This document shows, in pieces, positions 19,516 through 20,659 of a DNA stretch of 64,000 nucleotides; the stretch's first letter is position 1; the number at the start of each line of letters is the position of its first letter. The notes beneath the pieces are model-generated. The model was not told the origin of the DNA. It did no database searches and saw only the letters and a program-made list of their open reading frames with translations. The stretch is from an uncultured Pseudomonadota bacterium. Its GTDB lineage: Bacteria > Pseudomonadota > Alphaproteobacteria > Rs-D84. Made by a program: the position numbers and the translations under genes. Location: the NCBI GenBank assembly GCA_902801125.1, contig CADCGT010000002.1, positions 225,157 to 289,156 on the forward strand, written 5' to 3'.

Positions 19516-19542
19516 AAAAACCGCGGGATTCCGCGGTTTTTT
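19516..19542 (+). terminator. Rho-independent terminator
   Basis: AAAAACCGCGGG-ATT-CCGCGGTTTTTT. Confidence 0.8.
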
Positions 19543-19563
19543 GCGTGTGAAAAAGGCGTAAAA

Positions 19564-19682
19564 AAACCAAGGTTTTTTTACGCTTTGAATTTGAAAAAAT
19601 CGAAAATTGCTAACATATTGATTTTACGCAATAAAAAAATTTTGATTTTTTGAAAAAAAGTGTTGATTTTAAACCTTGGTTT
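19564..19682. promoter_or_regulatory. Invertible-promoter-like element, copy 2 (orientation B, flipped relative to copies 1 and 3)
   Basis: The 12-bp inverted repeats sit at 19564-19575 and 19671-19682. The 95-bp interior is the reverse complement, relative to the downstream gene, of the interiors of copies 1 and 3. TTGATT (19663-19668) lies 16 nt upstream of TATACA (19685-19690). Confidence 0.75.
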
Positions 19683-19720
19683 TTTATACACTTTTTATAC
19701 AGGGAAAGATTGGAGAAAAT

Positions 19721-20659
19721 ATGAAAAAATTTTTATTTATTTTGTTTGGTTTGTTTGTGGTTATGGGCGCGTTTGCGGCCGGCGAAAATATTCCAACAAG
19801 TAAATCCTATGTGGATTCAAAATTGGGCGAAAAACAAGACATAATTCCGGCAAACGACGGCGCAATACAGGTTTTAACCAACACTGGCACGGCGGGTGAA
19901 TACGGCACCAAGGGCATATACGATGCGAACGGCGCGTATGCAACGCAAACGCAAAACCTGGTTGATGCTGTCACAATGAATACCGCGGTTCAAAATGCAA
20001 TAGACAGTGAATTTCAATGCGTTGAATACGACGACCACGGCGAATGCTTATTGATGGATGTGTTTGGAACACCACCACAATCTATATTGCCAACCGGTTA
20101 TACGGCATTGGAATATCTTGAATCAACAGGTACACAATATATTGATACAGGTATCATAGTAAAAGCGACAACGCTGGCAGAATTTGAGTATCAATTTGTC
20201 GGTTCCGCCAAAAATTATGTTTTTGGTCAAGTCGCGGGGCGCGGAAGTAGCATAATAGGATACCGAACAGATAGAATATGGTGGTTCAGAAACACAGATC
20301 TTGATTTAATAGATAACAACAAACACAAAGTTGTTTTTAATCAACAAGATGGTAAAGTGTACAGAGATGGCGTTGTTTTGGCCACCCGGGGAGCTTTTGG
20401 AACACAACAATCACAAACAATACTACTATTTGCGGAACTTAATGACAATAACACAATAAATAAAGGCAAAGTCAAAATATATAATTTCAAACTGAAAGAG
20501 GGCTCAACCCCAAGCGTAATACAAAATCTTGTCCCCGCGCGGCGCAACAGTGATGGCGTATTGGGAATGTATGATACTGTGTCAAATACTTTCTTTACGA
20601 ACAAAGGAACCGGCGAATTTATCGCCGGCCCGATGGTTTACCTGCCCACTGGGGAATGA
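19721..20659 (+). CDS. Secreted TSKxYVD-family protein with a tail-fibre-tip or lectin-like C-terminal domain
   Basis: Signal peptide MKKFLFILFGLFVVMGAFA, then PTSKSYVDSKLGEKQD. The C-terminal LPTGYTALEYLESTGTQYIDTG...KVKIYNFKL...LVPARRNSDGVLGMYDTVSNTFFTNKGTGEF resembles receptor-binding domains I have seen in phage tail fibres. Confidence 0.8.
   Translation: MKKFLFILFGLFVVMGAFAAGENIPTSKSYVDSKLGEKQDIIPANDGAIQVLTNTGTAGEYGTKGIYDANGAYATQTQNLVDAVTMNTAVQNAIDSEFQCVEYDDHGECLLMDVFGTPPQSILPTGYTALEYLESTGTQYIDTGIIVKATTLAEFEYQFVGSAKNYVFGQVAGRGSSIIGYRTDRIWWFRNTDLDLIDNNKHKVVFNQQDGKVYRDGVVLATRGAFGTQQSQTILLFAELNDNNTINKGKVKIYNFKLKEGSTPSVIQNLVPARRNSDGVLGMYDTVSNTFFTNKGTGEFIAGPMVYLPTGE

Follow-up and report, generated by a model that had tools for sequence, protein, structure and literature searches.

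Bacteroides Mpi is a single serine invertase that flips 13 regions, including seven capsule promoters (PMC4747536, PMC10403206), and the promoters under its control are mostly OFF (PMC10403206). In the Din family (Hin, Gin, Cin, Pin, and Min), the inverted segments are 1–4 kb long, carry genes, and need a Fis-bound enhancer (PMC3798978). In Mycoplasma penetrans, dozens of paralogous mpl (P35) surface-protein genes each possess a very small invertible promoter and are switched independently (Horino 2003, as summarised in PMC2268961). Here we describe a 119-bp segment at positions 19564–19682 of a 64,000-nucleotide stretch (hereafter, the window) of contig CADCGT010000002.1, which belongs to an uncultured alphaproteobacterium of the Rs-D84 lineage. 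The segment lies upstream of a gene for a putative secreted protein (gene B), and we put the probability that it is a site-specific invertible promoter switch (an inverton), working by the mechanism proposed below, at about 80%. Rs-D84/Candidatus Enterousia bacteria (order Rs-D84) are widespread, uncultured inhabitants of the animal gut and rumen; these alphaproteobacteria have genomes of <1 Mb and almost no described biology (PMC12306168). We found no paper mentioning invertons in this group, and a text search of the literature returned no match for the repeat sequence of the segment or for the Bacteroides Mpi consensus, nor for an inverton together with a serine recombinase in Alphaproteobacteria.

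Functionally, the system appears closest to that of Mpi, and the M. penetrans mpl promoters are also similar. As in B. fragilis, a trans-acting small serine recombinase would serve many dispersed short promoter segments, which have common inverted repeats, are mostly OFF, and occur in gut symbionts, and the recombinases located beside switch copies match the Mpi family model NF009949 over its full length. However, the host is an alphaproteobacterium with a genome of <1 Mb and not a member of the Bacteroidota, the targets are single secreted-protein genes and not polysaccharide operons, and a sigma-70-like promoter is apparently split by the recombination site, whereas the Bacteroides segments contain a complete Bacteroides-type promoter. 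The repeat here, AAACCWWGGTTT, also differs from the Bacteroides Mpi consensus, ARACGTWCGT, and the Bacteroides invertible segments measure roughly 170–230 bp, compared with ~119 bp here.

The inner crossover core, the inverted sites with a 2-bp asymmetric centre, and a serine recombinase of ~200 aa with a C-terminal helix-turn-helix (HTH) are shared with the Din family. In contrast to that family, the recombinase is only weakly similar to Gin, and its best family match is Mpi; the interior of the segment is 95 bp long, contains no gene, and has a central IHF-like motif; and there are many dispersed targets instead of one local segment. A reduced, host-associated genome in which each gene has its own tiny invertible promoter is common to M. 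penetrans, where the element is ~135 bp long with a repeat of ~12 bp. There, however, the candidate enzymes are tyrosine (Xer-like) recombinases, whereas the candidate here is a serine recombinase, and the repeat sequences are unrelated. E. coli fimS is likewise an invertible promoter of a surface structure, with short inverted repeats and a requirement for IHF and Lrp to loop the short segment; it differs in its size (314 bp), its complete promoter, its enzyme type (the adjacent tyrosine recombinases FimB and FimE), and its restriction to a single locus. The present system differs from those of Mpi and M. penetrans in its host phylum, core sequence (Din-like), element size (a constant 119 bp), promoter architecture (apparently split), and possession of a central IHF-like site, and its recombinase narrowly misses the Mpi-family cutoff.

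Inversion of the segment in nature

The locus comprising the segment and gene B (locus B) occurs in both orientations. Other samples yielded close orthologs of gene B (loci are referred to by L numbers). At L069 (ERZ28613046), 100 nt of the upstream flank including the left repeat are identical to the window, and a further 788 nt upstream contain 15 mismatches. The 95-bp interior of the segment shows 58 mismatches to that of the window in direct comparison and only 2 after reverse complementing. Locus B is also flipped at L075 (ERZ27280353), whereas L045 and L068 have the window orientation. A second case is the switch copy adjacent to a recombinase gene (described below), which has one orientation in three samples (L046–L048) and the opposite one in a fourth (L049). 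With 100% identical flanks, the two states differ by an exact reverse complement of the 102 nt from CCAAGG to CCTTGG; since the arms of the two sites differ in L046–L049, the exchange can be placed inside CC-WW-GG. The same locus is therefore found in nature in both orientations at locus B and at the recombinase-adjacent locus.

The preliminary description of the window, based on the sequence alone, had proposed a phase-variation inverton and had held that a single fixed orientation at every locus, in deep read data from several samples, would count against it. Across samples, locus B was found in both orientations, which supports the proposal. In addition, a metagenome scan found the predicted ON junction at six more loci, including RUG-type genes (rumen) whose copies in the reference genomes are all OFF. 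At L074, the contig ends at or inside the switch, which is only suggestive of mixed orientations.

Three switch modules in the window

Exact matches of AAACCWWGGTTT occur six times in the window (5692/5799, 19564/19671, and 36878/36985). The count expected from shuffles is 0.03, and six was reached in none of 100 shuffles. The six sites form three pairs (AAACCAAGGTTT/AAACCTTGGTTT), each spanning 119 bp between its outer edges and enclosing a 95-bp interior, and no extra or degenerate pair was found in the window when up to two mismatches were allowed. A module present in three copies with 119-bp segments had been noted previously, and both direct reading and the exact search bear this out. The order of the module is a GC hairpin, (G/C)GCGTAAAA, AAACCAAGGTTT, 95 bp, AAACCTTGGTTT, (ATTG or TTTA)TACAC, a ribosome-binding site (RBS), and a signal-peptide gene with a TSKxYVD motif. 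This general layout agrees with that given earlier, with the correction that copy A has CGCGTAAAA outside and GGCGTATAGAAA inside, and not GGCGTAAAA. The features of switch B and its gene are as follows.

19521–19536, no strand: GC hairpin of switch B, CCGCGGGATTCCGCGG, between A5 and T6 (from the sequence; RNAfold -17.6/-17.0 kcal/mol on the two strands)
19555–19575, + strand: left recombination site of switch B, consisting of the fixed outer arm GGCGTAAAA and the core repeat AAACCAAGGTTT (19564–19575) (exact search)
19576–19670, + strand: invertible 95-bp interior of switch B, gene-facing (ON-like) (repeat search; reverse-complemented in L069 and L075)
19611–19623, - strand: central IHF-consensus-like motif AATCAATATGTTA (consensus WATCAANNNNTTR), a proposed bend site (position-conserved motif)
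19630–19668, + strand: A/T-tract (UP-element-like) followed by the -35-like TTGATT (19663–19668) (alignment, conservation gradient)
19671–19682, + strand: right core repeat AAACCTTGGTTT of switch B (exact search)
19683–19720, + strand: fixed gene-side flank with the -10-like TACACT at 19687–19692 (alternative, TATACA at 19685–19690), a short 5' leader, and the RBS GGAG at 19712–19715
19721–20659, + strand: gene B, the presumed switched gene, 312 aa, with a signal peptide, TSKSYVD, a poorly modelled linker, and a C-terminal beta-sandwich

The 12-bp repeats surround an intergenic segment close to a gene; 38 nt lie between the right repeat and the gene B start codon, ATG. In the window orientation, the left site of switch B and the interior end TTTTTACGC form a perfect palindrome, which a generic scan reported as a hairpin. 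The other two modules are arranged as follows.

5657–5810, + strand: switch A, with the hairpin at 5657–5681, left repeat at 5692–5703, interior at 5704–5798, and right repeat at 5799–5810
5815–6341, + strand: fixed flank with TACACT (5815–5820) and gene A, which starts with ATG at 5860, is paralogous to gene C, and is frameshifted right after YVD
36878–37040, - strand: switch C, with the gene-proximal repeat at 36878–36889, interior at 36890–36984, distal repeat at 36985–36996, and hairpin at 37023–37040
36327–36873, - strand: fixed flank with TACACT (36868–36873) and gene C (36839–36327, 170 aa), with a signal peptide, TSKTYVD, and a Cys-rich C-terminus

A repeat search detected 19546–19685 and 36860–36999 as a direct repeat on the + strand (87%), with genes B and C on opposite strands, and 19546–19685 and 5689–5778 as an inverted repeat (89%), with genes A and B on the same strand. 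Taken together with the gene strands, the repeat directions indicate that the interior at 19576–19670 is flipped relative to gene B while the flanks remain collinear with the genes, in agreement with the earlier reading. In switch A, GTGTTGATTTT is located on the minus strand at 5704–5714, and in switch C on the + strand at 36974–36984; in both, it is directed away from the gene (OFF-like). The arrangement of switch C is identical in L057.

No Rfam family was detected at the three modules, and the window contains only three tRNAs. The hairpin motif CCGCGGNWTYCCGCGG occurs in the window only at switches B and C. It had been considered as a general repeat that might explain rearrangements, and this idea was rejected owing to its confinement to these two switches.

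A switch family in Rs-D84 and Candidatus Enterousia

The GTDB genome collection, with one genome per species, was scanned for the repeat pair. Among the 44 loci returned, 41 were in Ca. Enterousia and other alphaproteobacterial or unclassified proteobacterial metagenome-assembled genomes (MAGs) from gut and rumen. Three loci (L018, L036, and L041, in MAGs labelled Atopobiaceae, Clostridiales, and Methylococcaceae) had unrelated interiors and were excluded from the analyses. In all, more than 45 switch copies were collected from Ca. Enterousia/Rs-D84 genomes of <1 Mb, with ~14 copies among the RUG13256 loci, ~11 in RGIG8185, and 8 in RUG774. The element is 119 bp long in most cases (range, 118–123 bp). 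At 29 loci, it lies 38–112 nt upstream of a gene encoding a signal peptide and (T/S)SKxYVD. Two paralogues of B (P0137 and P0138) are recorded on a 595,795-bp contig carrying window genes, and each has its own switch (L071–L073); together with the three copies in the window, this gives at least five switch copies in this genome.

The orientation was tallied for the 29 gene-linked entries, two of which repeat window loci from other samples (L045, locus B; L057, locus C): 24 are OFF-like and 5 are ON-like. The window and both Enterousia genomes each have one ON copy, RGIG8185 has one or two, and RUG13256 and RUG774 have none. The arrangement is that of a master invertase, with one recombinase type and many dispersed segments having the same repeats, and only one recombinase family was found beside the copies. 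Two loci deviate from the pattern. At L070 (1215–1500), no switch precedes an 86% ortholog of gene B, and at L065 (~1640–1790), the left repeat is decayed (AAACAAGTTT) and the interior is shortened and fixed in an ON-like state ahead of an unrelated gene. Both are possibly locked derivatives.

An Mpi-like recombinase gene linked to a switch copy in relatives

At L010, an open reading frame (ORF) of 202 aa beginning MIYAYCRVSTAHQ is located 103 nt from a switch copy. Its product has a Resolvase catalytic domain (Pfam, 5.6e-28) and a C-terminal HTH, and the best match in the PDB is the Gin DNA invertase (30 bits, E 3e-6), followed by gamma-delta resolvase. The homologs of this recombinase number in the thousands; the best 120 are 72–100% identical and ~200 aa long, and every one of these that has a source name is from an alphaproteobacterial MAG. 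A switch copy occupies the intergenic region upstream of the recombinase gene in 11 of the 11 contexts retrieved, and also at L010 and the metagenome locus L066. Across the switch, the neighbouring gene is divergent where seen and encodes a YadA-anchor protein, a 204-aa protein, or a member of the switched gene family. Four recombinases of relatives match NCBIfam NF009949, "master DNA invertase Mpi family serine-type recombinase," over its full length (254.6, 257.3, 263.7, and 260.9 bits; E 6e-76 to 1e-78; alignment to positions 1–197 of 203). The flip is apparently driven by a relative of Bacteroides Mpi, and we infer that the recombinase acting in this genome is of the Mpi type and encoded elsewhere.

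Recombination sites and proposed loop formation

The core AAACC-AA-GGTTT coincides with the inner core of the Din-family (cix/hix/pix) sites (hixL, TTCTTGAAAACC AA GGTTTTTGATAA; cixL, TTCTCTTAAACC AA GGTTTAGGATTG), in which the strands are cut and exchanged at the central dinucleotide (PMC3241671). The outer Din positions TTC/GAA are absent from the switch sites. A crossover core with an asymmetric central dinucleotide had been predicted, and both the match to the Din core and the natural flip, which puts the exchange inside CCAAGG/CCTTGG, support it. The arms beyond the core are of two kinds. In the state of A and C, each site has one arm of each kind, whereas in the state of B, a perfect palindrome (GCGTAAAAAAACC AA GGTTTTTTTACGC) makes up the left site and the remaining two arms are paired in the right one, as predicted by reciprocal exchange at the centre. 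When 48 unique elements were aligned in a common orientation, the repeats were invariant over species while the interiors diverged.

In 22 of 45 unique elements under the strict definition, and in 35 of 45 with one position relaxed, a match to the IHF consensus WATCAANNNNTTR occupies one and the same near-central position (shuffle expectation, 1.4 and 2.8, respectively). Genes for homologs of IHF-alpha (44% identical to E. coli IhfA) and of HU are present in the loci examined. Hin uses HU for a loop of ~100 bp and requires the enhancer ~100 bp from hix (PMC3798978). The centre-to-centre distance of the two sites is 107 bp here and ~106–111 bp over the family; this variation led us to drop a strict helical phasing of the two sites, which had been considered. 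Judging from its conserved position, the IHF-like motif would serve as a bend site joining both sites. The gene for an IHF-alpha homolog at L031 (3509–3781; MAG SRR8387716_bin.101) lies ~150 nt from a switch copy (3930–4048), which is probably a coincidence.

A proposed promoter split across the crossover site

Conservation of the interior rises from 0.61 to 0.82–0.85 toward the TTGAYT end in the 48 unique elements. In the conserved interior end, TTTTGATTTTTTGAAAAAAAGTGTTGAYT, a -35-like hexamer comes after an A/T-rich tract resembling an UP element. On the fixed side, TAC(A/G)(C/G)T is located 3 or 4 nt past the repeat in nearly all of the 32 gene-linked copies, and an extended -10 (TGn) is present in many of the copies from RUG and RGIG genomes. 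In the orientation of window locus B, the two parts are combined as TTGATT-18 nt-TACACT (19663–19692). The preliminary description had paired the same TTGATT with TATACA at 19685–19690; the 16-nt spacing is correct and this pair stays as an alternative, but the -10 conserved over the copies is TACACT at 19687–19692, with the 18-nt spacer. The junction would read TTGAAT-17-(TGT)TATAAT at L010 if flipped, and it is TTGATT-17-TACTAT in the ON state of L049. When the segments were flipped in silico, a simple junction promoter score was higher in the ON state for 32 of 32 loci (means, 10.2 versus 9.0). In the opposite orientation, GCGTAA or a similar sequence occupies the -35 position, and TTGAYT faces the upstream hairpin.

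The hairpins upstream of switches B and C are flanked by an A-run and a T-run, and RNAfold gives -17 to -20 kcal/mol on both strands. They are likely to act as a bidirectional terminator, insulating the switch from the upstream OmpA-family gene (18369–19475) or autotransporter. The upstream terminator claimed before is consistent with the A-run, T-run, and stable fold at B and C, but the hairpin of copy A (5657–5681) has no T-run. The comparisons suggest that the promoter is split across the crossover site with the B orientation as ON, and that the segment most likely turns secreted-protein genes on and off.

Proposed mechanism and alternative explanations

In the mechanism that we propose, a small Mpi-type serine recombinase encoded elsewhere would bind two sites of ~26–32 bp, whose inverted cores are 107 bp apart from centre to centre. 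It would cut at the central AA/TT dinucleotide, and the 95-bp interior would then rotate, with the central IHF-like bend site and the A-tracts probably permitting the very small loop. The UP-like tract and TTGATT are at one interior end only, and the -10 TACACT is in the fixed gene-side flank, so that a sigma-70-type promoter would be assembled over the right-hand site only in the window orientation, which would be ON for gene B. In the other orientation, seen at loci A and C, GCGTAA would take the place of the -35, and the -35 would face the bidirectional terminator hairpin, giving OFF. The predicted outcome is a family of secreted proteins, variable in their C-terminal domains, whose expression would be phase-variable and mostly confined to one member at a time.

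Several findings weigh against this interpretation. Both orientations come from different samples or strains and not from the reads of one population. Searches of the window by tblastn, with Hin (nothing at 1e-3), gamma-delta resolvase, XerD, and the family recombinase as queries, revealed no recombinase, as the preliminary description had stated. Its suggestion of an invertase acting in trans has gained a candidate in the small Mpi-type serine recombinase beside one switch copy in the lineage, but no recombinase for this genome was found in the window and the few other stretches read. The recombinases score below the curated NF009949 cutoff of 272 bits, a near miss. Neither a Fis homolog nor an enhancer was found in the lineage DNA examined, a small sample of genomes. 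An inversion loop of 107 bp is, to our knowledge, far below the size in characterised serine invertase systems. As for the promoter, TACACT matches TATAAT at only 3 of 6 positions, and a generic sigma-70 scan calls neither a junction promoter nor the GC hairpins as terminators. The same scan reports an internal TTGAAA-17-CATATT (19591–19619) aimed at gene B, which is unconserved in the paralogues. With no junction promoter called by the scan, the promoter model rests on comparative evidence.

These scan results would favour an explanation in which the inversion is real but the regulatory logic is different, with a complete internal promoter, a reversed polarity (A and C being ON), or a hairpin or terminator acting after initiation as in C. 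difficile cwpV. The left site in the B orientation, a 12-pair palindrome followed by T-rich sequence, points in the same direction. We nevertheless regard this explanation as unlikely. Conservation in the paralogues and in other species is seen for the TTGAYT end and the fixed TACACT, but not for the internal hexamers. The gap between the upstream terminator hairpin and the left repeat is only ~25 nt, which leaves no space for the upstream promoter that a cwpV-like model needs. Furthermore, the near-consensus junction promoters of L010 and L049 arise only in the proposed ON state, and the minority-ON pattern agrees with the proposed polarity.

The two orientations could also be old, fixed rearrangements, produced by rare homologous recombination between the 12-bp repeats or by gene conversion among paralogous upstream regions, with no active invertase and no phase variation. 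The occurrence of the two orientations only between samples or strains and the tblastn result for the window fit this explanation, as do interiors that are mosaic among loci, a block being common to the interiors of L075 and L058. It is nonetheless very improbable, given that the flips separate near-identical strains (15 mismatches in 788 nt upstream and 2 in the interior at L069; flanks 100% identical in L046–L049) and that repeats of 12 bp fall far short of the length at which RecA recombines efficiently. The invariance of the repeats over species with diverging interiors, the presence of a recombinase gene linked to a switch copy in each of the relatives examined, the match of the core to known serine-invertase crossover sites, and the contig breaks inside or at the switch (L074) argue against it as well. 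Finally, a miniature inverted-repeat transposable element (MITE) or Correia-like unit with 12-bp terminal inverted repeats, inserted either way upstream of genes and sometimes supplying promoter parts, would account for a short, multicopy, AT-rich, intergenic unit near gene starts with terminal inverted repeats and a central IHF-like site, traits also found in the Correia elements of Neisseria, but it is scarcely credible. Beyond the repeats, the flanks are themselves conserved, and they are collinear with the members of a homologous gene family, which indicates duplication of whole modules and not insertion of an element. Target-site duplications are absent, and one and the same locus is found in either orientation between identical flanks (in-place flips). 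No empty site was found among the closest orthologs (95–98%), the only element-less ortholog (L070, 86%) having a wholly different upstream region, and the repeats match a serine-invertase core and not transposase ends.

Possible exchange between switch loci

The orthologs of gene C (36327–36839) at L057 and L058 encode an identical 170-aa product, but their switch interiors differ, and upstream of the switch there is an autotransporter in one and a Pom/DUF3078 cluster in the other (L057 versus L058). The difference suggests a rearrangement or exchange between switch loci. Identification of the upstream neighbour at L058 with the window ORF 56999–57871, which would imply a 20-kb inversion inside the window, was rejected, as no BLASTP similarity was found. 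At L011 (2784–2902), a switch has terminator-type flanks on both sides and no gene, while at L063 (~906–1051), gene-type flanks and family genes are present on both sides, and the L063 switch could toggle two divergent genes. These two configurations are the reciprocal products expected from inversion between two loci. Collectively, L063, L011, and L057/L058 hint at recombination between loci from the same sites.

We tentatively extend the preferred inverton interpretation to a minimal, enhancer-independent serine-invertase switch in a genome of <1 Mb. In this scheme, an Mpi-like enzyme would act on a 107-bp loop with an IHF-type bend, the arms of the sites would double as the -35 and -10 regions, and inter-locus recombination would swap genes and invert large chromosome segments in a shufflon-like manner. 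As a whole, this scheme is possible rather than probable.

Implications for reduced genomes

A set of identical switches this dense (3 in 64 kb here, ~14 in one relative) implies that these reduced genomes invest heavily in antigenic or adhesive variation, the same pattern being seen in Mycoplasma and Bacteroides. An inverton of this kind would extend the Mpi-type "master invertase" design outside the Bacteroidota and link the Mpi type to a Hin-type crossover core. The 119-bp element offers a sequence-defined substrate for studying how a serine recombinase inverts a loop of ~100 bp, and the compact split-promoter switch could serve as a synthetic-biology part. The switch sites may also explain contig breaks and strain-level rearrangements in Rs-D84/Ca. 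Enterousia MAGs.

Putatively switched proteins and gene neighbourhood

Gene B has 1463 homologs; among those listed, none has a functional name, and the named ones are from alphaproteobacterial MAGs. Scans of proteins B and C against Pfam, NCBIfam, and PHROG found no family. In an AlphaFold model of the gene B product (40-sequence alignment), a C-terminal beta-sandwich spans residues ~121–305 with a predicted local distance difference test (pLDDT) score of ~90, and a Foldseek search with this model gave only weak matches, to LamG, pentraxin, and lectin-like domains, with E ~2e-3. The N-terminal module of B is also present in genes A and C, which have a Cys-rich C-terminus. A secreted or surface ligand-binding role of the switched proteins is plausible, and the products may be located at the surface. 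Gene A (5860–6341) contains a single frameshift at ~5955–5962, right after the YVD motif, and the L059 and L060 contigs, from two other samples, break inside gene A. Gene A may be a pseudogene, or indels may provide a second layer of variation.

The window is rich in surface-protein genes, comprising large repeat-rich ORFs in addition to the switched genes. Very large repeat-rich ORFs are found on the minus strand at 37062–40481, 47174–49405, and 49995–53435, and an autotransporter of 1139 aa with Chlamydia PMP repeats lies directly upstream of switch C. A 275-aa ORF at 8143–8970 (+) has a phage tail-fibre N-terminal match (PHROG 1640, 2.3e-9), and it is adjoined by a low-GC (34–38%) gene block at 8985–16769 (-), the first gene of which encodes a fucosyltransferase-like glycosyltransferase. 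Repeat arrays of GTTAGTGG/GTTAGTGTTAGTGG with a 13-nt period are located directly past the stop codons in many intergenic regions (5583–5655, 19473–19520, 21391–21488, 31580–31629, 45746–45828, and 58912–58963). They sometimes enclose a GC-rich palindrome and are also present in relatives (L065 and L071), and the contig L045 ends at one of them. These arrays look like a lineage-specific element resembling repetitive extragenic palindromic (REP) sequences.

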